Positions 14,352-37,555 are shown, counted from the first letter of the stretch. The stretch: DNA of 37,818 nt from an uncultured Dehalococcoidales bacterium (GCA_964595695.1 CAZQRE010000001.1:1-37818), one strand, 5' to 3'. Numbers and translations: made by a program. Notes: generated by a model not told the origin, from the letters alone.

Positions 14352-14389
14352 TAAGAGAGGGGACATCCAATCAAAAAGGAGGGAAAAAG

Positions 14390-17218: not shown

Positions 17219-18451
17219 TTAAACCCCTTGAGCTGTTTTTATCAGATAGAGTGGTAATTCAAGGCCGCTAACAGGACCTACCAAGACGTCCCATGAGGTC
17301 AATTTTTTAATATCCGTAGCCAGACTCTTGGCCAATCCAGGGATGATGAGCCTAGAATGCTTAACTTCAGCGGCTACCTGTGAGTCTACGAGTGTTTTAA
17401 AGATTTCGAAAGGGCGAAAGGTTTTTTCCCCCACCGCATTGTCTATGCTGTAGCCTTTAGTATCTGTAATTAATAAAAATGCATCGGTAAGTGTTGCTTC
17501 AAGGATAAGCTTCAAGATGGAAACAGTTTCCCGAAAATTTCCGGTTACCAGTACCATAGAATCAGGGGTTGGATGTCCGAGCTTAATCAAAGCCGGGGTA
17601 ACCGACTCCATCATTGTATCATAGGGTATTAAAGGGAGTTCCAGCTTAAACACCTTTTCCATTACTGTTTTGATTTTATCGTCCAATACGGGGCAATTAG
17701 AAGGGAGGTTTTTGCCTTCGATTATTTGTTCGGCAAATTCTACACAACTAGCTGCTCCGCATTCACCACAGTCCACATCCGGAAGATAATTAAGCAAATC
17801 TTCCGCTTCAAGGGGATAAAGCTCTGCATATTCTTGTTCTACCGGCATCTTATTATTCCTCCTTAATTTGACCCCGATGAGAATAGTCCCCTGACCCCAC
17901 ACATCAACCCCTTTAAAATAGCTACTTTTCAAGAATAAATCACAAGGTGTGCTGGGATTAGCGTAAATAATGGAATGATATGAAAAATCGCTTCCCTCCA
18001 GGATACACCATTCTGCCGGGATGCACGGGATTTCAAAATGGCAGACCTTCTTTATGATATCCTGGGGAAAAGATACCCTGTCCTTGTAAATAACAAAATC
18101 ATCGAGCATAAACCAGACATTTTCCTTTTTTTTCAGCCTGGCGATGGCTTCCTCATCCTGAATTTCTTCGCCCACCACCGCCTCCCCCTTTTTTAAAATC
18201 AGGGAAGGAGAGCCCCACTTAAACTCCCTGTCGGTCATGGCAACATAGACCAAATCACAAGTCAGCACCTCCCTTACCCCGGTGTTGGTGACCCTACCCA
18301 GACCCATCAAGGAGTGCTTTTCGGCATCCTCCTCGATGCCCAACACCTGCTCAGCATCTTCTTCAGAAAAAGGGCTGGCTTCCACGATCCCCTTCACCTT
18401 CTTCAAGGCGGCTATCATCACAGCATCTGCCTTCGTCCGGTCTATGGTCAT
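17219..18451 (-). CDS. Fe-S / corrinoid-binding protein related to the CFeSP large subunit (AcsC) but lacking the TIM barrel, with an unknown ~210 aa N-terminal domain
   Basis: It has the Fe-S domain motif CGECGAASCVEFAEQIIEGKNLPSNCP. The C-terminal segment VLVTGNFRETV...LLITDTKGYSIDNAVGEKTF...RLIIPG...WDVLVGP parallels the AcsC/HgcA corrinoid domain as I recall it. ATGA overlap with the upstream ramA-like gene. Confidence 0.5.
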   Translation of the reverse strand: MTIDRTKADAVMIAALKKVKGIVEASPFSEEDAEQVLGIEEDAEKHSLMGLGRVTNTGVREVLTCDLVYVAMTDREFKWGSPSLILKKGEAVVGEEIQDEEAIARLKKKENVWFMLDDFVIYKDRVSFPQDIIKKVCHFEIPCIPAEWCILEGSDFSYHSIIYANPSTPCDLFLKSSYFKGVDVWGQGTILIGVKLRRNNKMPVEQEYAELYPLEAEDLLNYLPDVDCGECGAASCVEFAEQIIEGKNLPSNCPVLDDKIKTVMEKVFKLELPLIPYDTMMESVTPALIKLGHPTPDSMVLVTGNFRETVSILKLILEATLTDAFLLITDTKGYSIDNAVGEKTFRPFEIFKTLVDSQVAAEVKHSRLIIPGLAKSLATDIKKLTSWDVLVGPVSGLELPLYLIKTAQGV

Positions 18452-20136
18452 TTCTCCTCTCCCGCTGAAGAACTACTTTGTCGACCTTTAACTCCTGAAG
18501 TAAGCAATCTAATCAGGTTGAACACCTTTTCGGTACACGCCCTTTCACATCTCATACAGGCCACCCCATTACATAGGGCTAGGTCAATAATGATGGTACG
18601 CTCCTCCCCTTCTTCATCCAGGGAAAGGGCTTCCTCGGGGCATTCCTCGACGCACTTCTGGCAGCCGATGCACCCGTCAAAAGCCATCTCTTTCCGTTCT
18701 CCGATGTCGGGGATGATCTTCAGCCCCATAACCCCTAAATCTGGTATGTCCCTCTCCACCGTCTTAATAACCTGCGGAAGCTCACTGACCTCGTGCAGGG
18801 GAGGATAGCCATATTTTTCCATAAACTTTTGATACATCTTCAAGGGCATACCCTCAGTCCAGTAGGCAAGTTCAAGGATATAGACCTTCTCGAAAACCTC
18901 GGACTCGGCAAACATGCAGTGGTTTTGCCGCATCTCATCGGCTATTTTTTGCATGTTCCACAGTTCATCCACGTTTTTGACCATATCCCTGGACATAGCT
19001 AGAGAGGTATTCCCTACTTGGAAGACTCTCTTTATACCTGACGGTACCATACCTATTTGCTGGGCCTTCAGGGCATCGACATAAGTTCCGGAGGCGCCGG
19101 ACATATAAGCCGTTTCTATTTGGCTCATATCTATACCAGCCACCTGACAAAGGGTGAAATGCCCAGCCCTGACGGCGCCAATGGCCTTACCCGCCTCCTT
19201 AACATCGTGTTCTGTAAACTTGACGCCGCTGGCAAGTTTGATTTGACTATCGAGTGTGCTGATTTTGGGAAGTTTAATCAAACCGGCGTTTAGTCCCTGG
19301 CTGAGTAAGGCAACCACTCCGGTACCAGTAATGCCTACCGCCTCTAAACTCCCTTTATCCAGGACTTTCCCCGAATTAGGGTCCACTCGGTCTCCTTTTT
19401 GGGCAAACATATCCTGGTCAAGGATAAAACACTGAAGTCCGCCATCCAGGTAATCGACATCAGAGATGGCTCCGGGGAGGGCTAATAGGCCATCTTCAAT
19501 CTGTTGCCCTTCTAGGGCAGGTCCGGCAGCCGTAGAGCCGGTGTAAACGATTCCCCCTACTATGAGGGCCATTTCATTGTTAGTGCCGTAATCGGTGACA
19601 ATGGCGATTTCTTCCCTTTCGAGCACACCTGTCTGAATCATCATGGCTAAGGCGTCGGCTCCAATCTCGTGGCGAACCGCCGGTGGCATCAATATGTCTG
19701 TTTCCGTCGGTAGGTTAAGACCCCTGATATCCCGTGCCTTAATTATTTGGGCGTCTCTTCTCGGGGTGACCACCCCGAGACGTTCCAGCTTTCGTTTTCC
19801 AGCATAGGCCAAGTCTCTTATCTCAATTTCCCTGAAAAGAGAAAGCTGAATAGGGTTGCCGCAGACAGCCAACCGCACCACATCATTTTTTTCGATTCTA
19901 AGGTTGTCAATAACCCGATTGACAGCATAAACAACTACCTCATGGGCAGTTTCCAGCCCAACCTCCAGGGCAAAATGTAGGTGGTCCATTACATTAGCCC
20001 CTGGCAGGGGGTGCCGGGTAGTAATAGCGGTAGAGATTATTTTGTTCCCATTATCCAGGTCAATGGCTTGCCCCCTGAAGCCACTGGTTCCCAAATCAAA
20101 AGCAATACCCAGTTTCCCCATAACTCCTCCTGGCAA
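18448..20136 (-). CDS. ramA: RamA-type corrinoid reductive activase (ASKHA ATPase plus C-terminal 2x[4Fe-4S] ferredoxin domain)
   Basis: 562 aa with ASKHA motifs (FDLGTSGF, TDYGTNNE). Two C-terminal Cys clusters: CIGCQKCVEECP and CNGVACMRCERAC. Confidence 0.75.
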   Translation of the reverse strand: MPGGVMGKLGIAFDLGTSGFRGQAIDLDNGNKIISTAITTRHPLPGANVMDHLHFALEVGLETAHEVVVYAVNRVIDNLRIEKNDVVRLAVCGNPIQLSLFREIEIRDLAYAGKRKLERLGVVTPRRDAQIIKARDIRGLNLPTETDILMPPAVRHEIGADALAMMIQTGVLEREEIAIVTDYGTNNEMALIVGGIVYTGSTAAGPALEGQQIEDGLLALPGAISDVDYLDGGLQCFILDQDMFAQKGDRVDPNSGKVLDKGSLEAVGITGTGVVALLSQGLNAGLIKLPKISTLDSQIKLASGVKFTEHDVKEAGKAIGAVRAGHFTLCQVAGIDMSQIETAYMSGASGTYVDALKAQQIGMVPSGIKRVFQVGNTSLAMSRDMVKNVDELWNMQKIADEMRQNHCMFAESEVFEKVYILELAYWTEGMPLKMYQKFMEKYGYPPLHEVSELPQVIKTVERDIPDLGVMGLKIIPDIGERKEMAFDGCIGCQKCVEECPEEALSLDEEGEERTIIIDLALCNGVACMRCERACTEKVFNLIRLLTSGVKGRQSSSSAGEEK

Positions 20137-20195: not shown

Positions 20196-21008
20196 TCAGG
20201 CTAATGCCTGAACTGCCATGGCGGCGACACCCAGTTGCAGGGGGTCATGGATAAGTTGAACCATGTCTGGGTTCGGTTCGTCAATGCCCAGAGGTATGCC
20301 CGGCGCCGCCAGGAGCAGCCGACATTTCAGCTCCCTAACCTTGATGATGTTAGCAGAGGTGGTGGCGTCCAGCACCAGGTTGGTCTCGTCTAGAATCTCA
20401 CCCACGCTATCCGCTCCTCTTATGTCTGCCCTCCCCACCAAAAAATCGGACTGCTTCCTCTGGTCCCTGTCATGGACAATAAGCCGGGCACCGTGTGAGT
20501 GAAGCCAGCCCACCGCCGCCTGCCCCACCGGCCCTAATCCCAGGACGGCCACTGAGCGTTCAGCGACACCTCCGGCAGCGGCGGCCAAGGCAGCAGCATA
20601 AATCTCCCCCGTAGCCAGTGCATTGTCTACCAGTCGGTGGGAAATTAGGTTCAGTGCCAAAAAGGCGTCATCATCGGCAAGGAATATGATTTCTGAACCG
20701 CCGGCCACAGCCTCACCCAAGCCAGCCACATCCTGCCCTCTGGTAACCCTGCAAGGCAGCCCCAGAAAGCAGCCTATGTCAGCCACCTTTTCTGAAAAAC
20801 CGGAAATGATGCCCTGACCAGTAGTGATAGGAATAACCGCCACCCAGGATAGGGCTGCCACCCGGAACCTGTACTGTTCCAGTGTCATGTCTGTTGTCTT
20901 AAGAGCCAGTTCAAGCATTCCCATACCAGTTACAGCCTGCAGCCTCTGCTCGTATGCTTTCAAATCGATGGGTCCCGGCCTCAGGTCGTCTGTGGTCAAT
21001 CGCGTCAT
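20196..21008 (-). CDS. pylD: pyrrolysine biosynthesis dehydrogenase
   Basis: 270 aa, collinear with Methanosarcina PylD as I recall it: N-terminal LTTDDL, ITTGQGII versus VTSGNGII, Rossmann motif LGLGPVG, and APGIPLGI near the C-terminus. Confidence 0.85.
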   Translation of the reverse strand: MTRLTTDDLRPGPIDLKAYEQRLQAVTGMGMLELALKTTDMTLEQYRFRVAALSWVAVIPITTGQGIISGFSEKVADIGCFLGLPCRVTRGQDVAGLGEAVAGGSEIIFLADDDAFLALNLISHRLVDNALATGEIYAAALAAAAGGVAERSVAVLGLGPVGQAAVGWLHSHGARLIVHDRDQRKQSDFLVGRADIRGADSVGEILDETNLVLDATTSANIIKVRELKCRLLLAAPGIPLGIDEPNPDMVQLIHDPLQLGVAAMAVQALA

Positions 21009-22239
21009 GATTTCCTCCGAGTTGCGGCACTTGGTAGGTAGTATCTATAAAATCTTTCAGGTTCAACGCCGAAGCCATGCGCTCCAGGCATCTTTGCCGC
21101 TTTTCGGCAACTGCAGTCCAGTCAACTCCAGTAAAGATGAGGGTGCCCTTGAAAGCCGCCTTACCTTCCTGATAGTTAGTCAGGGCTACGGTGGCTCCGA
21201 AAAATCCACCATTTGGCCACACTCGGAGTCCGCTCCAGGGTAGTAGGCGCGTCTCGCCAATGACCTCCAGACGGGAGTCACTTACTGACCAGTGTTCCAA
21301 CCAGGCGCATCCAGGCCTGGCTGACGCCGGGTGGAGGGGCTGACCACATCCATAGACCTTTACCCATTCCTCCAGCAGGTTGATACCGGAGGCATGATAA
21401 ACAGCCATGGGCGTCTGACTGGGAAAGCGAGCATCAATCTCCAGAACAACAAGCTCCCCCCTTTTGGGGTCGGCCATGACCTCAACATCCATAAGCCCAT
21501 TAAGCTTCAGATGGCGGGCAATGTCAAGGCAGATGGTTTCAAACCTCTGATTAAGACTGTGGGACAATCTCGACGGAGCATAAACCCGCTTGCAATCCAG
21601 CTTAGCATCAAATTCCAATTCGGTGACCAGATACCCGATGCCTGCCCCTTGCCGGGCAATTACCTCCAAAGAAAGGGAAGGACCACTGTGATAGGCTTCC
21701 ACCACCATCTCTCCGTAACAGGCAGTGAGTTCCGGCAAAACAGCGTCCAAGGCAGTCCGACTCGGCACTACCTGAAGACCATGACTCCCACTGGCCGTGG
21801 ACGGCTTGACTATAACCGGAAAGCGACAATGAGGCCACTTTTCAGGGACAGGTATCCCATGGTTGGCAAAAAAGCTGTTACTGCGTATTTTAGACGATGA
21901 TACGGCATAGGCTGCAGTATCATGCAAAAATGTCACCCCGGCTTCCTCGCAAGTCTCCGCCAAAAAATCCAGGGTCCCGTTCTCTTCAGTTGTCGGTAGA
22001 ATCGCATCCATACCCGACAGCAGGCGGCGAAATCGGTCGGGCTCTTCCTGGATGTCAAAAACGTAGGCCTGATGAGCCAGTGCCAGAGCTGGCGCCCCCG
22101 GGTTACGGTCGATAACCGTAACCTGATAGCCAGCTTCTTGTGCCAGGTAGGCGGCCTCAATCCCTTGTAGAAGCCCCCCAACAAGTCCAAGGCGAAAGGA
22201 ATAACCATGCGGTTTAGGGTTCATAGCCACCAATCTCAC
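20911..22239 (-). CDS. pylC: pyrrolysine biosynthesis ATP-grasp ligase
   Basis: LVGGLLQGIEAAYLA and EIDARFPSQTP match PylC (LVGGKLQGFEAAYL, EIDARFPSQTP). The start is ambiguous between GTG 22239 and ATG 22224. The 3' end overlaps pylD by 98 nt. Confidence 0.85.
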   Translation of the reverse strand: MRLVAMNPKPHGYSFRLGLVGGLLQGIEAAYLAQEAGYQVTVIDRNPGAPALALAHQAYVFDIQEEPDRFRRLLSGMDAILPTTEENGTLDFLAETCEEAGVTFLHDTAAYAVSSSKIRSNSFFANHGIPVPEKWPHCRFPVIVKPSTASGSHGLQVVPSRTALDAVLPELTACYGEMVVEAYHSGPSLSLEVIARQGAGIGYLVTELEFDAKLDCKRVYAPSRLSHSLNQRFETICLDIARHLKLNGLMDVEVMADPKRGELVVLEIDARFPSQTPMAVYHASGINLLEEWVKVYGCGQPLHPASARPGCAWLEHWSVSDSRLEVIGETRLLPWSGLRVWPNGGFFGATVALTNYQEGKAAFKGTLIFTGVDWTAVAEKRQRCLERMASALNLKDFIDTTYQVPQLGGNHDAIDHRRPEAGTHRFESIRAEAAGCNWYGNA

Positions 22240-22292
22240 ATAACGAGATGAGCTTTGCTAAGGGGTCACTAAGCTCACCTCAAGCATTGGAA

Positions 22293-22322
22293 ATTATAAG
22301 CCCTGTCTAAATTCTTTGTCAA
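22293..22322 (-). promoter_or_regulatory. consensus sigma70 promoter for pylC-pylD-ramA
   Basis: Minus strand reads TTGACA (22322-22317), an 18 nt spacer, then TATAAT (22298-22293). Confidence 0.6.
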
Positions 22323-22436
22323 CAGCTTGTGCTCTACGGTTCTGCTCGGTTGTGGTTGGTGGTTATTTTAAGGCGTTTATATCAAACATTTGTCAAGTAT
22401 TTTAGGGTTATTTTGAAAATATTTTAATGTAGGGGG

Positions 22437-22465
22437 TTGACAAATAACCATGTGTGGTATATAGT
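22437..22465 (+). promoter_or_regulatory. sigma70-type promoter for the NYN gene
   Basis: TTGACA (22437-22442), a 17 nt spacer, then TATAGT (22460-22465). Confidence 0.55.
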
Positions 22466-22473
22466 GCGTTGAC

Positions 22474-23130
22474 TTGATCCTTGCCCGTTGGCTGCGGTTT
22501 CGACTGTATCCAACGGGCAAGTGTTTTATTGGAGAGCACTTGAACACGATAGTCTTTTTTGATGGTCAAAACATCTATCGCAGTGCCAAGGACGCATGGC
22601 GGTCGACCGCTAGTGACACCTATGTTTACACATGGCCTAGCTATGATGTAGAGAAATTAGCTACAGCACTAGCTTCTCAAACTTCAGGGAGGACAATCAC
22701 ACAGATACGATTTTACACTGGTGTGCCTACTTCATACCAAAATTACCATTGGAATTGTTTTGGGGGGGAGAAGCTTAAGTATTTAGAAAGCCAAGGCATT
22801 GAAGTTTATAAAGGAAAAATCAATGCGCATAACCAAGAAAAGGGCGTTGATGTTAAAATTGCTATTGATATGATACGACTTACGTATGAGCGAAAATATG
22901 ATGTGGCGATAATTTTAAGCCAAGATAGGGATTTTGAACCAGCTATTAGTCTTGCAAAAAAGATAGCTAACGACCAAAAGCGACAACTCTTTTTTGAGTC
23001 ACACTTCATAATTGGGCCTAGTAGTGATTCGGGGAGGGGGATACCAGGGACAAAATGGATGCCGATTGACAAAGCCACTTATGACGTCTGCCTTGATGCC
23101 CAAGATTACCAAAAATCCACGACGCCCTGA
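22474..23130 (+). CDS. NYN-domain (LabA/DUF88-like) putative RNase
   Basis: IVFFDGQNIY, GVDVKIAIDM and ILSQDRDF motifs are typical of NYN domains. The probable true start is TTG 22540, after GGAGAG. Confidence 0.7.
   Translation: MILARWLRFRLYPTGKCFIGEHLNTIVFFDGQNIYRSAKDAWRSTASDTYVYTWPSYDVEKLATALASQTSGRTITQIRFYTGVPTSYQNYHWNCFGGEKLKYLESQGIEVYKGKINAHNQEKGVDVKIAIDMIRLTYERKYDVAIILSQDRDFEPAISLAKKIANDQKRQLFFESHFIIGPSSDSGRGIPGTKWMPIDKATYDVCLDAQDYQKSTTP
22481..22530 (+). promoter_or_regulatory. terminator-like leader hairpin (possible attenuator)
   Basis: Perfect 11 bp stem TTGCCCGTTGG / CCAACGGGCAA with an 18 nt loop, followed by GTGTTTTATT. It lies between the promoter and the probable start TTG 22540. 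Confidence 0.45.
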
Positions 23131-23146
23131 CCTCTACCTCCCCCAC

Positions 23147-23365
23147 CTAGCCTGAGCTGCCCTCTTTGCTATTTCTACCCGCCTTTCGGGTGTGAGTATT
23201 GCAAGCCCTAGCTCTACCACCCTTTAGACCACCAAGATGCCCCAATGCCTTAGCATCAAAGGTTTTAGTTGGTTTAGGTTCAATTTGTCCCGTAGCTTCT
23301 TGAACAACCCGAAATGCTGTGATACTGAAATCGTGTTCTCGTTTCTGTCTCATACCTTTAGCCAC
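23147..23365 (-). CDS. small basic protein, probably frameshifted near its 3' end
   Basis: After GGLKGGRA the annotated frame reads ...CNTHTRKAGRNSKEGSSG. The adjacent frame reads GLAILTPERRVEIAKRAAQARWGR, ending at TAG 23134-23136, which resembles a common C-terminal motif of small GGxxGGxARA proteins. Confidence 0.35.
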   Translation of the reverse strand: MAKGMRQKREHDFSITAFRVVQEATGQIEPKPTKTFDAKALGHLGGLKGGRARACNTHTRKAGRNSKEGSSG

Positions 23366-23374
23366 ATCATTGTA

Positions 23375-23791
23375 TTAAGGAGCTAGTATGGCTCCAAAGC
23401 TTGCTTGTTGTGGGTTCTCCCTAAGAAATGTCCATAGAAACTCCAATATTATACGAAGAAAGGCCTCCCAAGTTGTTTCCTCATATTTATGTGACCTTTT
23501 CCGACAACATAACGGTTTGGCTTCCTTCCATGCGATGGCGAGTTCGGGGTGTTTCTTTAGAAATACGGTTTCAAAATCCTCTATCTCTAGTCCAACCACC
23601 TCACCATTTTCAGGGTCAACTCTAATCCAAAACTCTCCATCCCAATCTACCGACGTTGCGGGGTGTGCTTTCTCAGGGCGTAGGAAAAAGGTATCCTCAT
23701 CTTCATGATATACAGGAATGAAATTCTTTATGTTACTCATAGTGTCGTAATCTATCTGAAGATTATCCAAACCGGTTATTTTTCTTCCCAT
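23375..23791 (-). CDS. hypothetical protein with a DUF2283-like core (possible antitoxin)
   Basis: WIRVDPENGEVVGLEIEDFE resembles the DUF2283 beta-core. It overlaps the upstream gene by 16 nt. Confidence 0.35.
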   Translation of the reverse strand: MGRKITGLDNLQIDYDTMSNIKNFIPVYHEDEDTFFLRPEKAHPATSVDWDGEFWIRVDPENGEVVGLEIEDFETVFLKKHPELAIAWKEAKPLCCRKRSHKYEETTWEAFLRIILEFLWTFLRENPQQASFGAILAP

Positions 23792-24120
23792 ATCAGAATA
23801 TCCCCCTTTTTCTTATTCTGACAAGCGAAAGCTGTTGAAATATAGCCCACTAAGCCCCTAAATATCCTTTTTCTGTATTTTATTGCTACCCTAAGGTATT
23901 GGGTATGAAATGGTTTGGGCAAAATAAACGGTCGGTAGATATTTTTCTGGTTGGGGTGCTTCGGGTCTTGGTAAACTTGGTATGGTTTTTCAATAGTTTC
24001 TTTAACATATGATTCACACCCTATCATTTCAGGATGTTCAAAAACTATATGATTTTCCCATGTATCCCTCGGACAAATAACAGTGATACCATCTTTGTCT
24101 AAGCATCGGAATACATCCAT
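23776..24120 (-). CDS. hypothetical small protein (possible toxin-like partner)
   Basis: 114 aa ORF whose W-x-x-H-I-x-x-x-HPEM segment is reminiscent of small nuclease-type toxins. The family was not identified. Confidence 0.3.
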   Translation of the reverse strand: MDVFRCLDKDGITVICPRDTWENHIVFEHPEMIGCESYVKETIEKPYQVYQDPKHPNQKNIYRPFILPKPFHTQYLRVAIKYRKRIFRGLVGYISTAFACQNKKKGDILIWEEK

Positions 24121-24183
24121 TCATTCCCACTATTTTGCCACTTTTATTTATCCTGCACCACAAAAGTTACTATTATTTACTAC

Positions 24184-24213
24184 TAGTATACCATAGTGTA
24201 CCACGGTATACCG
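24184..24213. promoter_or_regulatory. three 10 bp-phased repeats (operator-like) upstream of the 24120 gene
   Basis: TAGTATACCA / TAGTGTACCA / CGGTATACCG are contiguous with a 10 bp period and include the palindrome GGTATACC. They lie 64-93 nt upstream of the 24120 start codon. Confidence 0.5.
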
Positions 24214-24296
24214 CATTTTGTAAAACAAATCAACAATTTTGTCAAGTTTTTGCCCCAATACAAAATGATACACTACCTAGTTTTAGCACAGCCTGT

Positions 24297-25127
24297 TTAG
24301 ATGTTGAGCCGTGCCCCATCCAGATAGATTAGGCTTCTACCGACACGGTGTATATTCCCATTGCCGGTAACTAACATAGCCACCCGCTCCAGCCCTACAC
24401 CCAGTCCGGCCCAGGATTCGCTGATGTTCCAGTTGCCATCCAGGGGATGGGGGCCGGTAGCGCCCGAAGCCACCTCCACCCCATTACAGACCACATCCAT
24501 GGTAAAGCCATAAACCTGAGAGGACTCTTTCACCAAATCATAGGAAAGACCGAATGTGCCCATGACCAGGTCTGCTATCTCAACTAACCGTTCTTGTGGC
24601 TTACCCAGGCAACCCAATTCCACCAAGTTTAGCATAGTGAACTCTTCCATGTGGTGGGAGCCTGTGGACTCCTTGCGCCAGCAGGAGCCTATCTCAAAAA
24701 GGCAGATTGGACGCGGCCACAGACGCTGCAAGTGTCCCAACAGAAAATAGAGGTTAGGCGCTAACATAGGGCGCAGGCAACGATTTTCATCAATCCAGAA
24801 AATCTGCTTCCACAGGGGGTCATCTTCGGTAATGTTCATTTTTTTGAGTAATCCCCGAGCCAAAAAGGCTGGGGTAGTCACCTCCACGAACCCAGCCTGC
24901 ACCAAGGCTTCGGCTACCTGCGCCGCTATTCTAATCTGGACAGGACGACGCAGACTGGTGCGGAGTCTGGTCAAGATATCCATGTTTCTTTCCGACAACT
25001 CCTTGGCCAGATGATTGAAGTAAGCGTTACGCTCCGACTCCGAGGCAAAGCTCAGTGCCAGTGCCTCAGGTTCCGCATCCAGCTCAAGGAGTCGCTGTTT
25101 TTGAGTACTTGAAAAGGTAACCTTCAT
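24297..25127 (-). CDS. pylSc: pyrrolysyl-tRNA synthetase, catalytic (C-terminal) subunit
   Basis: From ATG 25127 (MKVTFSSTQKQRLLEL) the sequence is collinear with Desulfitobacterium PylSc as I recall it. Shared segments: CLRPMLAPNLY, FEIGSCWRKES, EFTMLN, GPHPLD, GLGVGLER and SLIYLDGARLNI. Confidence 0.9.
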   Translation of the reverse strand: MKVTFSSTQKQRLLELDAEPEALALSFASESERNAYFNHLAKELSERNMDILTRLRTSLRRPVQIRIAAQVAEALVQAGFVEVTTPAFLARGLLKKMNITEDDPLWKQIFWIDENRCLRPMLAPNLYFLLGHLQRLWPRPICLFEIGSCWRKESTGSHHMEEFTMLNLVELGCLGKPQERLVEIADLVMGTFGLSYDLVKESSQVYGFTMDVVCNGVEVASGATGPHPLDGNWNISESWAGLGVGLERVAMLVTGNGNIHRVGRSLIYLDGARLNI

Positions 25128-25467
25128 GTCCGCCTTCCTTGACAAAGGAGGTCCGAGAGTATTTTTCCAGCTTCCACCCTGGCACCCGGCAACCCTGACA
25201 GGGCTTTTCGTACCACTTATTCCTGAGCCACCGTGCCAGGCGACCATTGTTGGAACGCCTAACACAGACCTTTTGGTTGCAGTGGGTAATTATGGTCATC
25301 ATGTTACCCCGGCATTTTACGGAACGGACACCATGGAGAATCCCCTTATGCGACGGCAAAAGCTTAATTCGATTTATGAGGTAATACAAGTCTTCGCCCT
25401 TCCTAAAGACCCTCTTCTTTTTCTGCTTTCCGCCAACCTCAGTGGTGACGGGACTTTGTGTTTCCAT
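25084..25467 (-). CDS. pylSn: pyrrolysyl-tRNA synthetase N-terminal tRNA-binding domain protein
   Basis: KGILHGVRSVKCRGNMMTIITHCNQKVCVRRSNNGRLARWLRNKWYEKPCQGCRV aligns with the archaeal PylRS N-domain ([55 protein letters not shown]). Confidence 0.85.
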   Translation of the reverse strand: METQSPVTTEVGGKQKKKRVFRKGEDLYYLINRIKLLPSHKGILHGVRSVKCRGNMMTIITHCNQKVCVRRSNNGRLARWLRNKWYEKPCQGCRVPGWKLEKYSRTSFVKEGGHEGYLFKYSKTATP

Positions 25468-25499
25468 AACAATCCCCCCGGGCTATAGACGGCAAACGA

Positions 25500-25571
25500 T
25501 GGCGGAGAGTTCGGGAGTTTAACCCGACTACATGGATTTAGAGTCCACGTGGTCCTGCCGACCAACCCTCC
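25500..25571 (-). tRNA. pylT: tRNA-Pyl (anticodon CUA)
   Basis: Minus strand: GGAGGGT T GGTC GGCAG GACC A CGTGGA CUCUAAA UCCAUG UAG UCGGG UUAAACU CCCGA ACUCUCC G CCA. It shows the tRNA-Pyl hallmarks: one base between acceptor and D stems, a 5 nt D-loop, a 6 bp anticodon stem, a 3 nt variable loop and no TPsiC sequence. Confidence 0.9.
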
Positions 25572-25632
25572 ATAAAGGCTGAGAACACTTACTTTCCCCC
25601 GGACACTTAACCCATCGTGTCTCCTATCTTCG

Positions 25633-25666
25633 ATATCTCACCGAAGAGTCACTACATTGGCTCCAG
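25633..25666 (-). repeat. short relic copy of a pylB internal segment
   Basis: GTCACTACATTGGCTCCAG (25648-25666) is identical to 28748-28766 inside pylB. Flanking similarity is CGAAG(AG)TC versus CGAAGTC. Confidence 0.8.
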
Positions 25667-25698
25667 TAGTATGCAAGTTCCCCCCAGCCGGCTCGTCG

Positions 25699-26382
25699 TT
25701 ATTTCGGCCTTTGAATGGCTCTCAGCGCTCGGCGCAATATATCCAGCCAGGGTTCTACCGTTTCGGCTCTAAGGTGTTCGTAGTCCTTTGCCAACGATGC
25801 ATCTGCCACCGTCAGGTAGACCCTAGCCACTTCCGGGCTATCAAATCCCCCGCCTAGCTTATCCCCTAAAACCCTTTTTAACGAAGGGTAAAGCTTTTGG
25901 TACGGTTCCAGAAGTCCCATAATTTCGAAAATGTTACCCTCCATTTCCTCCAGGCGCGGAAAGGGTTCGCTCAAAAGCCTTTCCAAAACACGAAAATGCT
26001 CAGACAATGAACCCAGCCCACCCTGTAAGTAAGTACTGACTGCCTCCGAATCAACACTCATACAATCTATGACAGCCAGTTGGCAGTCGTCAACTGCATA
26101 AATGCTGTAACCTTCGTCACCAACTTTTAATTCTAGCTCATTTTTCACGAAATTGTGGAGAGCATCTCCCGTGACTCCGGAAGACATCTTCCCAATCATC
26201 CGTATCAACTCCCCGCTGGATTCCAGTGGAAGTTCAGCCGGAGCCTTTTCGTCAGTCTTCAAGCGGTATAGCTCGGCGTAGAAATGGCACCGCACGACTA
26301 AAGGCCGGGCCATGCTCCCGTAGGTACCAGGGTCCCAAACCTTTAACACCAGCGTGTCACCCGGCGAGCTTTCGCAGTTCAT
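25699..26382 (-). CDS. hypothetical protein, family not recognised
   Basis: 227 aa ORF with an ATGA overlap to the upstream VWA gene. No motif was recognised. Confidence 0.5.
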   Translation of the reverse strand: MNCESSPGDTLVLKVWDPGTYGSMARPLVVRCHFYAELYRLKTDEKAPAELPLESSGELIRMIGKMSSGVTGDALHNFVKNELELKVGDEGYSIYAVDDCQLAVIDCMSVDSEAVSTYLQGGLGSLSEHFRVLERLLSEPFPRLEEMEGNIFEIMGLLEPYQKLYPSLKRVLGDKLGGGFDSPEVARVYLTVADASLAKDYEHLRAETVEPWLDILRRALRAIQRPK

Positions 26383-27554
26383 CGTTCATACCCCTGTAAG
26401 CGGATGACCCTTCCGAATGGCGGCTCAAGGTAGGAATTCATAACCCAGATGACATCAAAGGGTTGATTCGAGTCCGGGTATTTCCCGTCTCCGTCCGTCA
26501 GGTAGACCAGCACCTCAGGCGGGTCATCATCTATCTTGCTGAAAACAGGACGGAAGTCGGTACCACCACCACCACTGAGGCACTTCAGGAAGGGCTCAAA
26601 ATCCGAATCATGCACCGCCATCATATCGGCATGAACGGCGGCATCGCAAGCTAAAAGCCTGGCCTGGAACGAGCTGAAGGACTGGAGGATGTTTCTCATC
26701 TCCGCCAAAAACTCGTCAAGCTGCTCATCACTCACGCTTCCCGAGGTGTCCACAGCCACCGCTATTTTTAACATTTCGGACTTAGAAGATGGATAGTATA
26801 CCCCATATTGAAGCAATCGCTTATCGGGTCTCATCCAATCGTAGTCATCGCTGGAGCGCTGCTTAATATACTGATGCAAAAGCTGATGCCAATTCAACCG
26901 AGGGTAAGCAAGTTCCCCAACTACCCGGGCAATGCCCAAGGGGAACATACCCTGATGTTTTGCCACCGCCGCCGCTTCAATCGCCCTCTGTTTCCACAAC
27001 TCCTCATCTTTACTAGCTTCAGCAGACTTATCCAATGCCTCCCTTGGTCGACTATCCGGTTGGTTGACCTTATCCCCACCCCCTTCTTCAGTGTTGTCCC
27101 ACACACCATGGTCATCCACGGTGTCTCCTTCACCACCAAGCAGGTTATCTTCGCTCAGTAGCTCATTGTAAATCTGCTCGGCGCTTTTGTTTTCAAACTC
27201 TTTTTTGTACAATATCCCCTCAGGCAAACGGAACTGGTCTTTCAAAATGGCGTTAATCGCATAGTCCGCCGCCATGTTCCACAGCCTTTTTGCTCGAGAG
27301 CCTCGTCTCCAAATGTGTCCTAGCGCCAGATGCATCACCTCGTGGGCAAAGACCCCCTCAATCTCCTCATCTTCCAGTCTATCTATCTTTTCCGGAAAAT
27401 AGTATAGGCGAATACCATCAGTCCCGGTTGGATATTCGCTCTCATGCTCCCTCAGCTCAAGATAGCTGGCGAGATAGCCAAAAAAGGGGTTCTTCAGCAG
27501 TAGCTGAACCCTGGCTCTAATTACCCTTCTCCTGACGCTCTTAGAATCACTCAT
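26379..27554 (-). CDS. VWA-domain protein with an N-terminal HExxH metallopeptidase-like domain (DUF2201-like)
   Basis: HEVMHLALGH motif in the N-terminal half and a MIDAS-like DTSGS (AVAVDTSGSV) in the C-terminal half. ATGA overlap with the AAA+ gene. Confidence 0.7.
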   Translation of the reverse strand: MSDSKSVRRRVIRARVQLLLKNPFFGYLASYLELREHESEYPTGTDGIRLYYFPEKIDRLEDEEIEGVFAHEVMHLALGHIWRRGSRAKRLWNMAADYAINAILKDQFRLPEGILYKKEFENKSAEQIYNELLSEDNLLGGEGDTVDDHGVWDNTEEGGGDKVNQPDSRPREALDKSAEASKDEELWKQRAIEAAAVAKHQGMFPLGIARVVGELAYPRLNWHQLLHQYIKQRSSDDYDWMRPDKRLLQYGVYYPSSKSEMLKIAVAVDTSGSVSDEQLDEFLAEMRNILQSFSSFQARLLACDAAVHADMMAVHDSDFEPFLKCLSGGGGTDFRPVFSKIDDDPPEVLVYLTDGDGKYPDSNQPFDVIWVMNSYLEPPFGRVIRLQGYER

Positions 27555-28555
27555 AGAATCAAATCCCGGTGCTTTTCGGCAAAATAAACAAATTCCTGTG
27601 TTTCTCTAACCGGTAACTCCGCTCTGATAGCATCCCTTACCAGCAGCACGGAAAATTCCTCAGGTAAGAGACAGGCGTATTCTATAACCCTGGCAGTTTT
27701 CTCCCTGTCCTCGCGGGCATAACAAACCAGGGCCGATACCAGAGAGTAGAGCAGGTCCGGACTCTGTGGAACCAGGTCCTCTCCGTTGAGAATCATCCTT
27801 GCATCCGGAAGCCGCTCTGTTGCCCGCAGGTAAGCTACGAATTCAGTGGCCGCACCCACGCCGATAGCACCGGCTACATCCGTTTTGCTATCAAGCCCTA
27901 TAGCCAAAATCTCGGAGACCCTCTCCCAACTTCGAGGCGTGGGAAAGGCGTGTTCCATCTTCACCGGGTCGAAGCGAAACAGTAGGTCAGGTTTAAAGCT
28001 CAAAAAACCTATTATCCTGGGGTCAATTTGATTTACATACGCCCACTTTTTCCAGTCATCAAGATTCGTTTCAACTTCCCAATGGATAAACCGATTCGCT
28101 AACGGGGCCGGCATCGGCACGGTGTAGGCCCTGTCGGTGGACTTATTTCCCGCCGCCACCACCATCCACCCATCTGGCAACACATACTCCCCAACTCTGC
28201 GGTCCAAAATAAGCTGATACGCAGCCGACTGCACTGAATGAGGCGCCAGGTTCAACTCGTCCAGGAACAAAATACCCTTTCCACTTTGCGGCAAGAAGCA
28301 GGGTGGCGACCACCTGACCGTTCCCCCATCAAACCTGGGCAGCCCCCTTAGGTCAACCGGGTCAAGCAAGGTCAACCGCAAATCCTCAAAATCTATTCCC
28401 TCCTCCTCACAGATTTGCTTGATGATGTCAGACTTACCTATCCCTGTGGAGCCCCATAAAAAGACCGGCGGAGGGTGTATTCCTGCCTCGAGGCAAAAAC
28501 TCACCATATGCCTGAGCACCTCTTTAGCTTCGTTAATGGTTTTGGTGGCGAGCAT
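27551..28555 (-). CDS. MoxR/AAA_5-type AAA+ ATPase
   Basis: Walker A motif GSTGIGKS and Walker B motif ILFLDELN; 334 aa. It starts 2 nt after the pylB stop. Confidence 0.8.
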   Translation of the reverse strand: MLATKTINEAKEVLRHMVSFCLEAGIHPPPVFLWGSTGIGKSDIIKQICEEEGIDFEDLRLTLLDPVDLRGLPRFDGGTVRWSPPCFLPQSGKGILFLDELNLAPHSVQSAAYQLILDRRVGEYVLPDGWMVVAAGNKSTDRAYTVPMPAPLANRFIHWEVETNLDDWKKWAYVNQIDPRIIGFLSFKPDLLFRFDPVKMEHAFPTPRSWERVSEILAIGLDSKTDVAGAIGVGAATEFVAYLRATERLPDARMILNGEDLVPQSPDLLYSLVSALVCYAREDREKTARVIEYACLLPEEFSVLLVRDAIRAELPVRETQEFVYFAEKHRDLIL

Positions 28556-28557
28556 CT

Positions 28558-29676
28558 TTATGACCTCTTCTTTTTACTCAGCCGCTTTTCCTTTTTAATC
28601 CACTGTTGGTACACTGATACCGGGGCTACCCTCAGACCCAGCCGTTCAATCACCGGGGTCACCACCGACACCGTCCGCAGCCCGTCTTCAATACCTAACT
28701 GAGACCTGGATACCCCCGCCAGTCCATACCGCGGTGGTATCATCGAAGTCACTACATTGGCTCCAGCATTCAATCGAGCCTCAAGACCCTGAACACCATC
28801 CACATCCAGCGAGGCTGGTATCAGCCGCTCGGGAAAGCAAATACGAAAGGTGGCAATAGTTCGTAATTCATTCAGTGAATCCGGTGCTGGCCAATTAGCC
28901 ATCGGGGTGCCACGCTGAGGTCTGAAGGTCATCGCCCGCACCTGGCTGGGGCAAAGGCTTTCTATGGCTTTTACTGCCAATGCTCCGTCAGCGGGGCTGT
29001 CTCCTACCCCTAGCAGCAGCCCCTCTTCAATAAGCAATCCGACCTGGCGGGCATTCACCTTAGCTGCCAGACGTCTATCAAAATCTTGCTCTATACGCAA
29101 GCGGGCAAAAAGACTTTCATTAAAGGTTTCCTGGTAACAGGCATACCAATCCACCCCGAGGCGGGCAATTTCAACCAGGGTTCCTGGTGTTAAAACGCCG
29201 GGGGAAACCATAACTGATAACGGGACAGCTTCGCGCACCTCATACACCATTTCCAGAAGCCTCCCCCCACCCCCCTCCAGGTAGTAAGGGTCTTCTCCCA
29301 TGGTCAAATCCAGCAGGTGAACCCCATCGGCGGCTAATGCCCGGGCGATATCGAGTATGACCTTTATATTTTTGCGGTAACGAGGCGAGGCGCTGTTGCC
29401 CTCCCGATAAAGACAAAAATTGCAGTGGTTTTGGCAGTAGGTGGATAGATAAACAAAACCGTAAAGGAAGACCTCCTCCCCGAAGACGCGCTCCCTGAGT
29501 GCCCGGGCGGTGGCAAAGAGGCTATCCAGGGGTTTACCCGGTGGTGTGGCTAAAAGCGAAGTCACCTCTACCTCATCCAGGGGCTGCCCGCACCAGGCCT
29601 TTTCTAAAATGGGTTCAAGAGTTTTCATGGTTTTGAGCACCTGCTCCAAACCTTGCCTCCGCCACTGGCTAGGCAA
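28558..29676 (-). CDS. pylB: radical SAM methylornithine synthase
   Basis: CxxxCxxC motif (CQNHCNFCLY), BioB-like size, and the pyl context. The start is ambiguous between TTG 29676 and ATG 29628. Confidence 0.8.
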   Translation of the reverse strand: MPSQWRRQGLEQVLKTMKTLEPILEKAWCGQPLDEVEVTSLLATPPGKPLDSLFATARALRERVFGEEVFLYGFVYLSTYCQNHCNFCLYREGNSASPRYRKNIKVILDIARALAADGVHLLDLTMGEDPYYLEGGGGRLLEMVYEVREAVPLSVMVSPGVLTPGTLVEIARLGVDWYACYQETFNESLFARLRIEQDFDRRLAAKVNARQVGLLIEEGLLLGVGDSPADGALAVKAIESLCPSQVRAMTFRPQRGTPMANWPAPDSLNELRTIATFRICFPERLIPASLDVDGVQGLEARLNAGANVVTSMIPPRYGLAGVSRSQLGIEDGLRTVSVVTPVIERLGLRVAPVSVYQQWIKKEKRLSKKKRS

Positions 29677-29735
29677 AAGAAACTATAGATATAAAACCTT
29701 GTCTGAGTTTACCAATTACGAGCCGCTGAAATAAT

Positions 29736-29767
29736 AGTATTAACTCAATTAAAAGTTGAGTAATACT
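29736..29767. promoter_or_regulatory. AT-rich 12 bp-stem palindrome upstream of pylB
   Basis: AGTATTAACTCAA ttaaaa GTTGAGTAATACT with one bulged base. It lies between the mtmB terminator and the pylB start. Confidence 0.45.
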
Positions 29768-29777
29768 CGCTACCCTA

Positions 29778-29817
29778 AACACATTCGCCCACCGCCCCAG
29801 AAGGGACGGTGGGCGAA
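29778..29817 (-). terminator. intrinsic terminator after mtmB
   Basis: Minus strand: TTCGCCCACCG, a 12 nt loop, CGGTGGGCGAA, then TGTGTTT. Confidence 0.7.
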
Positions 29818-29840
29818 ATCTCAAATCAAGAGCAAGCTTT

Positions 29841-31232
29841 TTATAGCTTAAACTTGAACCCGCACCCCTCCATGGTCTTTAAGGCTTTACCCATTACCTG
29901 GATATACTCATCCGAAGGCGACAGGGTAGCTACATTGTAGCACTCCTGGAAGGTCTTGCCCTTTGGTGCCGTCTTGAAGTTCTTCTCGTAGAGAGACACC
30001 AGCTTGTCCAGCATGGGGTTAACCTTTTCCAGCTCCAGCCCGGCGACTGCTCGGCTTGCATAAGCCATAAAGCGTGATTCCATGGCAGTGGTGTAGTCCA
30101 TGGCAACACCTTTTGCCGAGGCACAACCACTAATAATCTCACGCCCGCTGGCAGTATCCGTAACCGCCTGAGCCGCTGCCTCCAGCAAGCACATCTCAGT
30201 GCATGGGCCGGCTGAGGTATAGTACTGGTTACCCAAAAGTAGATGGGTATTGCGATCCAGAGCCCGACCACAGTAGCCGGCAACCATCAACACCTCTCTA
30301 GCTGTTGTGTTGCCCCAGCGTACATGAATCGGTCCGTCCAGATGCCAGTCAGCGCCCACCAATATGAAAGCTCCCAAACTGGTGGCTACATCAATGATAG
30401 TGGTCTCCTCGATCCCTCCTGCCCAGCCACCAAAGATGGGCATCTGCTCACTCATAATGATGGAACCGTCCAACTTGTAATGGGCGGTGAAGGTAAGGGC
30501 ATTAATGTCAATCTTGAGCTCATTAAGCTGACTTACCTCGTGGCTATCACTTGTCCTCATACCGCCCGGAAAATCAGCAGCTAAAACGCCAGCCGCCGTT
30601 AGCGAAGTTTCATTCCCCTACATCGCCATCCCGGGACGACCAGCCCGCATCTGTGCCATCCGGATTCCGTATGCTTCCTGTTTGACAGCAGCTATCTCAT
30701 ACGGGGAGCCAGGCTTGGGTTCGTGCCCGTTCCAGGTAGCCACAACACCGTCAACGATGGAATCTACCAAGGGCTCCCGGGCATACGACTCCATCATCGG
30801 GATAAAGATGTTCTCCGATACCGGAGCCCCGGTCGGACCACCCTGATTCAGCGGTTGGCGGGGGTCATCAAATTTCCGCATCTTTAGCTGCACCGAATCC
30901 TTACCCTCACCCAGCGTGAGGCAGTCAGGAGCCGCCGCTACCGCCATCATAACCTCGTCCTCGGTGTACTTACACACACGACAGGTATCCATGTTGAAAT
31001 AGCCCTGTGTTACGAGCATTTCAACACCGGCACGGAACAAACGGTCTATCAGGTCATTGTCAGTCGGGACTATCTTGCTCCTGTCAAATTGAAGCTTATA
31101 CTTCTCCTTCAATGCGTGTGCCGTTTTGAAGGTGAGTACTTCATCCCACTCTTTCTCTGTCATCCTAGGGCCGGTGCGCATTCGGTCGTAGGTCTCAAAC
31201 ACGCCAACCTTTTCCCTAAAAGTAGTAGCCAT
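29841..31232 (-). CDS. mtmB: monomethylamine:corrinoid methyltransferase with an in-frame UAG (pyrrolysine) codon at 30618-30620
   Basis: The track ORFs 30618-31232 and 29841-30560 are in one frame with no other stop between them. The junction reads AGRPGMAM-(UAG)-GNETSLTAAGVLAADFPGGMRTSDSHEVSQLNELKID. Methanosarcina MtmB reads AGRPGMGV-O-GPETSLSAQGNISADCTGGMTCTDSHEVSQLNELKID. The amber codon is codon 205. Confidence 0.9.
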
Positions 31233-31316: not shown

Positions 31317-31955
31317 TTATCCCATTAGTTTCCTGGCTACCGTCACCGCCTCGGCCCCATTCTCAGCCCAACCATCAGCGCCAATCTGTTTTATCCACTC
31401 CGGAGTCGTAGGTGCCCCGCCAAACATGCACTTGAATTTGTCGCGGATACCTCGCTCCTTAAGGGCGTTAACAATCTCACGCTGGGAAAACATGGTCGTG
31501 CTCATGAGAGCTGAGCCAGTAATCATGTCGACCTTCTCCGCGACGGCAACATCAACCACGTGCTCTATGGGAACATCACGACCCAGGTCCAGCGTCTCAA
31601 ATCCGCTGGCACCCAACAGGATTTTCACGATATTTTTACCAATATCATGGATATCCCCTTCTACGGTATGAACGATGACCTTGCCTTTGGATTTGTAGCC
31701 TCCCTTAACAAGGGGCTTCAGGATTTCCACCGCTTCGGTAAAGGCTTCAGCTGAAATAATAATCTGGGGAACAAAGACCTCCGCCTTATCAAACAAATCG
31801 CTGATGACATTCATACCCGCCCCCAAACCCTCGTTAATGCACTTAAGGGGGTCCACATTCTCAGACGCAGCCTGTTTGGCGGCAGCCTTAGCCCCATCTA
31901 CATCCTGTTCAACAACAGCCTTCTTTAACTTTTCCAGAATTTCCTTCTCGGGCAT
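31317..31955 (-). CDS. mtmC: monomethylamine corrinoid protein
   Basis: 212 aa with the DxHxxG motif (GDIHDIGKN), immediately upstream of mtmB. Confidence 0.85.
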   Translation of the reverse strand: MPEKEILEKLKKAVVEQDVDGAKAAAKQAASENVDPLKCINEGLGAGMNVISDLFDKAEVFVPQIIISAEAFTEAVEILKPLVKGGYKSKGKVIVHTVEGDIHDIGKNIVKILLGASGFETLDLGRDVPIEHVVDVAVAEKVDMITGSALMSTTMFSQREIVNALKERGIRDKFKCMFGGAPTTPEWIKQIGADGWAENGAEAVTVARKLMG

Positions 31956-32122: not shown

Positions 32123-33307
32123 TTAATACGGTTCCGCCCTGCCGGGCTCCACAGCGAAGACCTCGGAATCGTCCACAGCCAGCGCCGGTCGCGTGCGGCA
32201 CAAAAGTCCAGTGACACCACCGAGTACCAGACCAATCGCCATAACGCCGACCAAAGCCCAGACCTGCACAATGCCGGCGAAGAAGACAGCAGCCACGAGA
32301 GCGCCAAAAATACCACCGACCCCGTGCAGGTTGTGCACCCCCATCATATCTTTCACACCAAAGATTTTTTCGGTAACAGGCTGCAAGTATTTAAATGATA
32401 AGACTGATATGACACCTGCCGCCACACCAATGGCAAGCCCTGTCCATGGTCCGACCAGGTCAGCCGTTGAACCAATGGCAACCAGTCCGCACAACATAGC
32501 ATAGGTGTAAATCAGGGGGTCAACCTTTTTGTCTATGACCCACAGCAATACATAACTAATGAATGCCGAACCAAACCCAGCCATGTAGGTGGTTATGAGT
32601 ACACGAATCGTATCTTCCGGTGCCACCAAGACTGTAATAAAGGATGGCCACAATACAAATAGCAGCATCGCCGCCAGCCAGACGAAGCTCACACTGTGGG
32701 TGGTGGTGTCCATCGGCGCCGTTAGAGCTGACTTACTCCGAATGGTTAGAATCATCCCCCAGCCAAAGTAAGCTGCCAACACGTGTACCAGAATGGAGCC
32801 CCCAACGTCCATTACGCCTGCCAGGTAGAAAAACATATACCACTCCACGAGCAGAAAAGCGAAGGGGAAGATCAACGCCATGATAACATAGTGACCATGC
32901 TTTACCTGCCCCAATGGCACCCCGATGGCTATCACCAGCGTTATCGACATAACGATAGCAACTGCCAGAAAGTCAATGTTCCACATTGCATACCCTGGCG
33001 CACTCTCAAACAGTCCTGCGAAAACAACAGTTTTGAGAAAAGCATACCACGGTAAGCTAAGCGTCAGCGTGACCATAGTTGCCAGGCAGACTATCCACTC
33101 CATCCTCTTAACAAACAGCATCAAAAAGGCAACTAGCATGTACATAAAGAAGATATCTAGTGTCCTTTTGTACTGCCACATGTCAAACATAGTTTCGTCT
33201 GTAATTTCCTGAGCTAGAGTACTAACTGGCTGGACTATCAGCGCTATCACTGTTGCCGCTACTAACAATCCAATCCATAATACTTTCCGTGATTTCAGCA
33301 ATTTCAT
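32123..33307 (-). CDS. Rh-type (Rh50-like) ammonium/methylammonium transporter
   Basis: 394 aa polytopic protein. DVGGSILVHVLAAYFGWG and GVHNLHGVGGIFGAL match Rh-family signatures as I recall them (D-GGS-x-HxFGAYFGL; GVHNLHG-PG). Confidence 0.7.
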   Translation of the reverse strand: MKLLKSRKVLWIGLLVAATVIALIVQPVSTLAQEITDETMFDMWQYKRTLDIFFMYMLVAFLMLFVKRMEWIVCLATMVTLTLSLPWYAFLKTVVFAGLFESAPGYAMWNIDFLAVAIVMSITLVIAIGVPLGQVKHGHYVIMALIFPFAFLLVEWYMFFYLAGVMDVGGSILVHVLAAYFGWGMILTIRSKSALTAPMDTTTHSVSFVWLAAMLLFVLWPSFITVLVAPEDTIRVLITTYMAGFGSAFISYVLLWVIDKKVDPLIYTYAMLCGLVAIGSTADLVGPWTGLAIGVAAGVISVLSFKYLQPVTEKIFGVKDMMGVHNLHGVGGIFGALVAAVFFAGIVQVWALVGVMAIGLVLGGVTGLLCRTRPALAVDDSEVFAVEPGRAEPY

Positions 33308-33576: not shown

Positions 33577-33605
33577 ATTTTAAAACAAACCAACCATTTT
33601 GTCAA
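33577..33605 (-). promoter_or_regulatory. candidate promoter P2 upstream of the Rh-mtmCB genes
   Basis: Minus strand reads TTGACA (33605-33600), a 17 nt spacer, then TAAAAT (33582-33577). Confidence 0.45.
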
Positions 33606-37348: not shown

Positions 37349-37555
37349 TTGCTTACCTCCTTTTGTGGTTGAAGCGTAAACTAATCTCTGCGTGAATGTC
37401 AATAGCTTCTTACCTTTAAAGTCCAAACCTGCAATCACACAATCTGGCTAATTGTGACATCAAAGTATTTGGAAAGCCTGAAACACTTCTAGACTATGAG
37501 GTGGCACACATTGGCAAAATGAGCGCATTTGTATAGGCAGGCAACCCCACAATAA

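Follow-up and report, generated by a model that had tools for sequence, protein, structure and literature searches.

The question raised by this locus is whether a TAG codon inside mtmB, the gene of a monomethylamine:corrinoid methyltransferase, is a stop or is read as pyrrolysine (Pyl) with the help of the pyl genes encoded beside it. The locus lies on a stretch of 37,818 nt from an uncultured Dehalococcoidales bacterium (GCA_964595695.1 CAZQRE010000001.1:1-37818). This whole stretch was analysed and is referred to as the window; the Pyl set under study occupies positions 20196-31232 of its minus strand. Comparison loci, given L numbers, were fetched from genomes and metagenomes. All ratios of nonsynonymous to synonymous substitutions (dN/dS) were calculated for window genes against L002, a contig of a metagenome-assembled genome (MAG) that is labelled ‘uncultured Dehalococcoidales bacterium’ and whose PylSc was 94% identical in a single genome-collection scan. 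We consider it very probable that the window, from an uncultured member of the Dehalococcoidia (Chloroflexota), carries a bacterial-type pyrrolysine cassette that is genuine and most likely functional, along with a monomethylamine methyltransferase module. All predicted components are found in intact form and under selection, alignment puts the UAG at the catalytic position of Pyl, and the predicted tRNA is Pyl-shaped (Table 1).

The mtmB TAG codon and the genes predicted to read it

An open reading frame (ORF) finder cut mtmB into pieces of 204 and 239 aa. An earlier note on this DNA had treated the pieces as one gene with a single in-frame TAG at codon 205, homologous to the Pyl codon of Methanosarcina MtmB, and the alignments bore this out. 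Translation of the whole frame contained one internal stop only, the TAG. With codon 205 masked, the read-through protein gave a single Pfam MtmB match that covered profile positions 2-449 of 450 (682 bits), and it aligned end to end with MtmB1 of Methanosarcina barkeri (1tv2; 542 bits, residues 4-461). Residue 205 fell on chain residue 202, the Pyl site of PDB entries 1tv2 and 1l2q, within an ungapped block. In all 15 homologues compared (57-93% identity), the codon aligned to this TAG was also TAG, and the alignments held no further stop. Since the TAG is conserved in homologues that have no other stops, the two ORFs are regarded as one gene and not as a pseudogene, which is also excluded by the dN/dS of 0.37. 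MtmB-like paralogues with only 33% identity were encoded in L029 and L065 and had Met or Phe at the Pyl column; they look like members of the MtmB family that do not use Pyl and are encoded near pyl clusters.

The tRNA-Pyl gene pylT, named in the earlier note with its CUA anticodon and unusual architecture, was called by ARAGORN and matched by a custom covariance model. The model was built from seven tRNA-Pyl genes that adjoin pylS in other loci (from the Chloroflexi-type clade described below, a Firmicutes MAG, a Deferrisomatales MAG and a further MAG), with the window tRNA left out. It found pylT at 96.5 bits (E = 4e-22), and the runner-up, an ordinary tRNA-Ala, scored 14.8 bits. In the cloverleaf, 1 nt separates the acceptor stem from the D-stem, the D loop has 5 nt, the anticodon stem 6 bp and the variable loop 3 nt. 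When nine sequences were tested against it, 97.5% of cells paired and five pairs showed two-sided (compensatory) changes, compared with 29-64% pairing in slid controls. Rfam gave no match at pylT, neither at the gathering threshold nor at E ≤ 10. This reflects a gap in the library, since the purpose-built model scored 96.5 bits.

The five pyl proteins all scored above the curated NCBIfam cut-offs, and every part listed in the earlier note (pylB, tRNA-Pyl, pylSn, pylSc, pylC and pylD) was found on the minus strand of the studied region. PylB reached 419 bits with the equivalog model TIGR03910 (cut-off 348), and its translation shows the CxxxCxxC motif (CQNHCNFC). PylC scored 325.9 bits with TIGR03909 (cut-off 248) and PylD 197.9 bits with TIGR03911 (cut-off 150), with an additional Pfam PylD_N match. 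The pyrrolysyl-tRNA synthetase (PylRS) is split as in bacteria, with predicted separate genes for PylSn and PylSc. PylSn, an ORF of 127 aa (TIGR03912, 96.6 bits; cut-off 51), aligned to the N-terminal domain of Methanosarcina mazei PylRS (5ud5) with the CxxC pair conserved. PylSc was a separate ORF of 276 aa in another frame (TIGR02367, 281.6 bits; cut-off 178). It matched 26 PylRS structures in PDB, of which PylSc of Desulfitobacterium hafniense was the closest (3dsq/2zni; E = 1e-76), and where 23 diverse PylSc sequences show no variation, it has the same residues. The two genes overlap by 44 nt, as they do in L004 and L015. The dN/dS of pylB, pylSn, pylSc, pylC and pylD was 0.21-0.23, with values of about 0.21 for the three biosynthesis genes pylB, pylC and pylD.

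UAG is ambiguous in this window and not reassigned genome-wide, since TAG still terminates six of the 34 window genes (cobS, cobC, cobO, the corrinoid gene at 11040-11729, amiS and orf374). Downstream of these genes, the next in-frame stop other than TAG follows after about 7 to 97 codons. UAG is likewise ambiguous in other Pyl-using bacteria. No gene in the window other than mtmB had a credible internal TAG. The use of TAG as an ordinary stop, the cutting of mtmB by the ORF finder and the foreign DNA that interrupts the cluster (see below) could all be taken to mean that the TAG at codon 205 is a true stop as well, so that mtmB would be a pseudogene, or its product would naturally come in two pieces, and the pyl genes would be a decaying relic. 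We judge this very improbable. The TAG sits exactly in the Pyl202 column and is kept across homologues with both halves in frame, the pyl ORFs are intact, exceed their family cut-offs and are under purifying selection, and both insertions are confined to intergenic spacers.

Table 1. Predicted features of the Pyl locus and its immediate surroundings, in window coordinates.
Feature	Position	Strand	Match or basis
RACo/RamA-like corrinoid reductive activase, directly 3' of pylD	18448-20136	-	Pfam RACo_C_ter (E = 5e-60), Raco_middle, Fer4_7
pylD, 3-methylornithyl-N6-lysine dehydrogenase	20196-21008	-	TIGR03911, Pfam PylD_N
pylC, 3-methylornithine--lysine ligase (ATP-grasp)	20911-22224	-	TIGR03909
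Sigma-70-type promoter consensus TTGACA-18-TATAAT upstream of pylC (perfect)	22293-22322	-	12/12 positions
Low-GC cassette of 1,944 bp: orf114, DUF2283-like ORF, NYN-domain gene (+ strand)	22336-24279	mixed	40.8% GC
pylSc, catalytic subunit of PylRS	24297-25127	-	TIGR02367
pylSn, small tRNA-binding subunit of PylRS	25084-25467	-	TIGR03912
pylT, tRNA-Pyl, anticodon CUA, CCA encoded	25500-25571	-	ARAGORN, custom covariance model
Orphan gene (227 aa), third gene of insertion 1	25699-26382	-	no family match
DUF2201 protein (putative metallopeptidase and VWA-like domain), second gene of insertion 1	26379-27554	-	DUF2201_N (E = 3e-41), DUF2201 (E = 1e-23)
MoxR-like AAA+ ATPase, first gene of insertion 1	27551-28555	-	phrog_1297 (E = 1.5e-92), Pfam AAA_5
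pylB, methylornithine synthase (radical S-adenosylmethionine)	28558-29628, or to 29676 with upstream TTG start	-	TIGR03910
G+C-rich hairpin of 15 bp between mtmB and pylB	29784-29817	-	consensus scan only; weak T tail
mtmB, monomethylamine:corrinoid methyltransferase, 463 codons	29841-31232	-	Pfam MtmB, M. barkeri MtmB1
mtmB UAG codon 205, predicted Pyl codon	30618-30620	-	aligns to residue 202 of 1tv2/1l2q
mtmC, cognate corrinoid protein, directly upstream of mtmB	31317-31955	-	TIGR02370, Pfam B12-binding_2, B12-binding
Amt-family ammonium transporter, head of the block	32123-33307	-	Pfam Ammonium_transp (E = 7e-29); syntenic in L002
Promoter-like site upstream of amt	33577-33605		consensus, 11/12 positions

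Gene order and two insertions in the cluster

The relatives of the window PylSc formed a clade that ranged from 100% to about 60% identity, and other bacteria formed a separate plateau at 47-59%. The order mtmC-mtmB(TAG)-pylB-pylT-pylSn-pylSc-pylC-pylD was found in eight members of this clade (L004, L005, L008, L009, L022, L023, L026 and L027). Other bacterial loci had the orders pylT-pylSn-pylSc-pylB-pylC-pylD or pylT-pylSc-pylB-pylC-pylD-pylSn. Because of this difference, the placement of pylB upstream of pylT is, by sequence comparison, a trait of the Chloroflexi-type clade. In every relative examined, pylT was directly upstream of pylSn. L006 and L007, also of the Chloroflexi-type clade, had pylT-pylSn-pylSc adjoining mttC and a TAG-split mttB, near a branched-chain-type ABC transporter and with no pylBCD within the flanks.

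Desulfitobacterium hafniense has the same split PylRS, the same PylBCD enzymes and the same compact tRNA-Pyl cloverleaf as the window. It differs in host phylum and in gene order: its pylT-pylSc-pylB-pylC-pylD-pylSn arrangement was found in L037, L038, L040 and L091 but not in the window, where pylB is 5' of pylT, pylSn lies just before pylSc and the cluster holds two foreign cassettes. Methanosarcina barkeri, with MtmB1 and pylTSBCD, shares the UAG position (Pyl202) and the same logic, which combines MtmB with MtmC as corrinoid partner and with a RamA-type activase. However, its PylS is a single fused protein, whereas that of the window is split, and its methyl acceptor is coenzyme M. The host phylum and split-synthetase type of the window are those of the numerous pylSc and pylSn genes of Chloroflexi type reported from metagenomes by Mukai et al. 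in mBio (2017; PMC5424206). Whole clusters were rarely on one contig in that study, whereas the window has the full mtmCB-pylB-T-Sn-Sc-C-D block on a single contig, with two cassettes in addition. The same study linked SepRS/SepCysS to some of these lineages (PMC5424206); neither was found in this window.

The earlier note was silent on the fact that the cluster is not contiguous. Two insertions interrupt it, giving the order pylB-(three genes)-pylT-pylSn-pylSc-(low-GC cassette)-pylC-pylD. Both lie in intergenic spacers, and no pyl gene is disrupted.

The first insertion consists of a MoxR-like AAA+ ATPase gene, a DUF2201 gene and an orphan gene. The ATPase scored 22.5 bits with Pfam AAA_5 (cut-off 22) and stayed under the cut-off of AAA_3. 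Both the ATPase and the DUF2201 protein matched phage families over their full length (phrog_1297 and phrog_1314, the latter at E = 8e-89). The orphan protein had no family match in Pfam, NCBIfam, PHROGs or PADLOC. An exhaustive HMMER search of 1.84 billion proteins returned only three representative clusters for it, all from the same lineage, and its single-sequence AlphaFold2 model was too poor for a fold search (mean predicted local distance difference test score 44.5). The insertion was present in all close relatives with a PylSc identity of at least 90% (L002, L015, L018, L020 and L024) and absent from the same eight sister lineages that share the clade order (66-86% identity). Upstream of pylT, a leader of about 55 nt was conserved in L002, L015 and L004, including relatives without the inserted genes, and the insertion therefore took place upstream of this leader. 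The leader contains a small hairpin (25601-25624, minus strand; GGAGACAC...GTGTCC), which may be a putative processing or promoter-associated element.

We take the three genes to be a module derived from a phage or mobile element that landed in the spacer and was kept as a working gene pair. Full-length homologues of the DUF2201 protein occurred in 654 phage records, at no more than 36% identity, and the DUF2201 homologue of Thermus phage phiFa has an AAA+ ATPase gene 1 kb upstream. Outside the clade, the nearest relatives of the pair were archaeal (MSBL1, Hadarchaeum; 37-45% identity) and were surrounded by small hypothetical genes and genes for DNA polymerase B, NrdD, a transposase and a ParB-like protein, a context resembling mobile elements, with no pyl genes nearby. 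A DUF2201 homologue also occurs in Methanonatronarchaeum. PADLOC found no significant match for the three genes, and they are not a known defence system.

Several observations would also suit a different reading, in which the genes are no passengers but were recruited as a working part of the operon in this lineage. They might, for example, encode a chaperone of the MoxR-VWA type (VWA, von Willebrand factor A) for the maturation of MtmB, of the corrinoid protein or of the Fe-S enzyme PylB. The genes are packed 2 nt behind pylB, start and stop codons overlap among them (including the DUF2201 start with the ATPase stop), and every clade member with at least 90% PylSc identity has kept them. The dN/dS was 0.10 for the ATPase, 0.14 for the DUF2201 protein and 0.51 for the orphan, so that no other genes of the block are under purifying selection as strong as that on the pair. 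MoxR/VWA pairs are moreover known as cofactor-insertion chaperones, e.g. NorQ/NorD (PMC9976466). As in NorQ/NorD and CoxD/CoxE, a predicted AAA+ ATPase gene in the window is followed by one for a VWA-like protein in an overlapping frame. In contrast to these pairs, the VWA-like protein begins with a putative metallopeptidase domain (DUF2201_N), the families are typical of phages, and any link to Pyl is positional only.

Unrelated pairs of a MoxR protein and VWA_CoxE were seen beside the pylSn gene of a Deferrisomatales MAG (L011, 5469-7278; AAA_3/AAA_5) and less than 10 kb from the pyl genes of L032, which would again speak for recruitment. Among 80 metagenomic PylSc loci, the pair of the window type was restricted to the closest clade, and an unrelated MoxR/VWA_CoxE pair occurred in one of the 80, plus L011. 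The idea that MoxR/VWA pairs are general companions of pyl clusters was rejected, with only two such cases in about 90 other loci. This rarity, the phage families, the archaeal relatives without pyl genes and the sister lineages, which have the same order and presumably the same biochemistry but not the insertion, led us to consider recruitment unlikely. That the three genes play a part in the Pyl or methylamine pathway is possible, though quite unlikely, and lacks support, given that the sister lineages do without them. It is quite unlikely, too, that one Dehalococcoidales sublineage domesticated the phage-derived pair and the orphan within its mtmCB-pylB operon as a dedicated maturation or quality-control factor. 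If it did, they might load or repair corrinoid or Fe-S cofactors, or clear the truncated MtmB that results where UAG acts as a stop.

The second insertion stands between pylSc and pylC in place of a spacer of about 95 bp, and its GC content is well below the 53.6% of its flanks. Pfam recognized the NYN domain (E = 8e-18) and, weakly, DUF2283. With PADLOC, only the NYN gene was matched (HEC-09, E = 7e-10; NYN, E = 5e-6). The ends of the cassette showed no target-site duplication and no terminal inverted repeats. The cassette was present in L016 and absent from L017, L002 and L015. Since the PylSc of L017 is 98% identical, the insertion is very recent. Just 3' of the cassette, the promoter consensus of pylC is intact; it is conserved in L002 and L017. 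A strong hairpin, which may attenuate or stabilise the mRNA, separates mtmB from pylB, and with the predicted promoter it would suggest at least two transcription units.

Host, assembly and neighbouring genes

The host is best placed in the Dehalococcoidia (Chloroflexota) from two lines of sequence evidence, the synteny with the Dehalococcoidales contig L002 and the names of CobS homologues. The window and L002 were syntenic over about 20 kb at 88-92% DNA identity, from a tRNA-Ala gene and amt through RACo, and about 20 kb were syntenic with L015 as well. CobS, whose gene lies at the opposite end of the window (134-913), had hundreds of close homologues (69-94% identity), and all those bearing organism names were called ‘Dehalococcoidia bacterium’ or ‘Chloroflexota bacterium’. 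The earlier note had suspected a host outside the classic Pyl-decoding Firmicutes and Deltaproteobacteria. This agrees with our placement, although a Chloroflexi host for pyl genes is not new, having been reported in 2017 (PMC5424206).

An artefact, i.e. a chimeric assembly or a mis-binned fragment that only feigns the gene arrangement or the Dehalococcoidia host, has to be considered for a window from metagenomic-type data that shows GC jumps (41-44% at 22-24 kb) and an internal direct repeat of 295 bp. However, near-exact copies were found in independent assemblies, and chimerism is therefore unlikely: L016 matched the window at 99.5% over 5.6 kb and reproduced the arrangement from pylT to pylD, the low-GC cassette included, and L001 matched at 99.9% over 3 kb and reproduced the junction of pylD and RACo. 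With the synteny to L002 and L015 over about 20 kb, and with CobS independently indicating Dehalococcoidia, we hold such an artefact to be highly improbable.

MtmC, encoded directly upstream of mtmB, reached 235 bits with TIGR02370, ‘methyltransferase cognate corrinoid protein’ (cut-off 215). At the other end of the cluster, the RACo/RamA-like gene was syntenic in L002, L015, L017 and L018. The window further contains three URO-D-type and one MtrH-type methyltransferase genes, a second RACo gene, mtaB/mtaC, cobW and cobalamin salvage genes; because these occur together, the window is a methylotrophy island. The methanol:corrinoid methyltransferase gene mtaB (Pfam, 654 bits) and mtaC are located at 12969-15139. 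The two copies of the 295-bp direct repeat (12269-12563 and 17865-18159; 96.6% identical) bracket mtaB-mtaC-cobW-amiS, and one of them (12265-12513) represents part of the CdhD-like gene found at 17219-18451. L002, L015 and L017 lack the 5.3 kb between the copies, which suggests that the methanol methyltransferase segment was gained by recombination. An ORF of 76 aa at 37208-37438 (minus strand) encodes a CxxC...CxxC zinc ribbon of the DUF5679 type, which the earlier note had mentioned; a DUF5679 gene was also near the pyl cluster in L004.

Predicted pathway and significance

By analogy with Methanosarcina and Desulfitobacterium, PylB would isomerise lysine to 3-methylornithine, PylC would ligate this to a second lysine, and PylD would oxidise the PylC product, which would cyclise to Pyl. 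PylSc, aided by the tRNA-binding PylSn, would charge tRNA-Pyl(CUA). The charged tRNA would compete with the release factor at UAG 205 of mtmB and so yield full-length MtmB whose active site contains Pyl. This enzyme would activate monomethylamine and methylate Co(I)-MtmC, and the RACo/RamA-like activase would re-reduce corrinoid that has become inactive as Co(II). The Amt-family protein may handle the released ammonium, and the URO-D-type and MtrH-type methyltransferases of the window may hand the methyl group on, to tetrahydrofolate or another carrier.

Some points weigh against a functional system of this kind. The reading was drawn from sequence, and the host is uncultured; its placement comes from a MAG bin label and homologue names. 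The two insertions part pylB from pylT and pylSc from pylC and could disturb co-regulation. PylC has an unusual C-terminal tail of 25 aa, which arose by loss of a stop: the codon is TGA in L002, L015 and L004 and CGA in the window, L016, L017 and L018. This change is synonymous in the overlapping frame of pylD (98-nt overlap, 20911-21008). Finally, no stem-loop of the pyrrolysine insertion sequence (PYLIS) type was detected in the 124 nt that begin 3 nt 5' of the UAG (z = +0.85 against shuffled sequences), a difference from M. barkeri. An RNA element 3' of the UAG is not known to be required in Pyl systems.

The window is another, well-resolved case of the already reported Chloroflexi-type Pyl systems, with a gene order specific to its clade and two insertions specific to its lineage. 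It does not overturn current understanding, and potential novelty is confined to the AAA+/VWA module of phage type that is conserved within the operon. The insertions indicate that a cassette for genetic-code expansion can accept foreign DNA in its spacers without gene loss. PylSn, PylSc and tRNA-Pyl are a further natural variant and a candidate orthogonal pair. For the Dehalococcoidia, a group abundant in anoxic subsurface sediments, a complete Pyl cassette on a single contig, accompanied by methyltransferase genes for methylamine and methanol, supports the view that they may consume methylated amines on which methanogens would otherwise feed.

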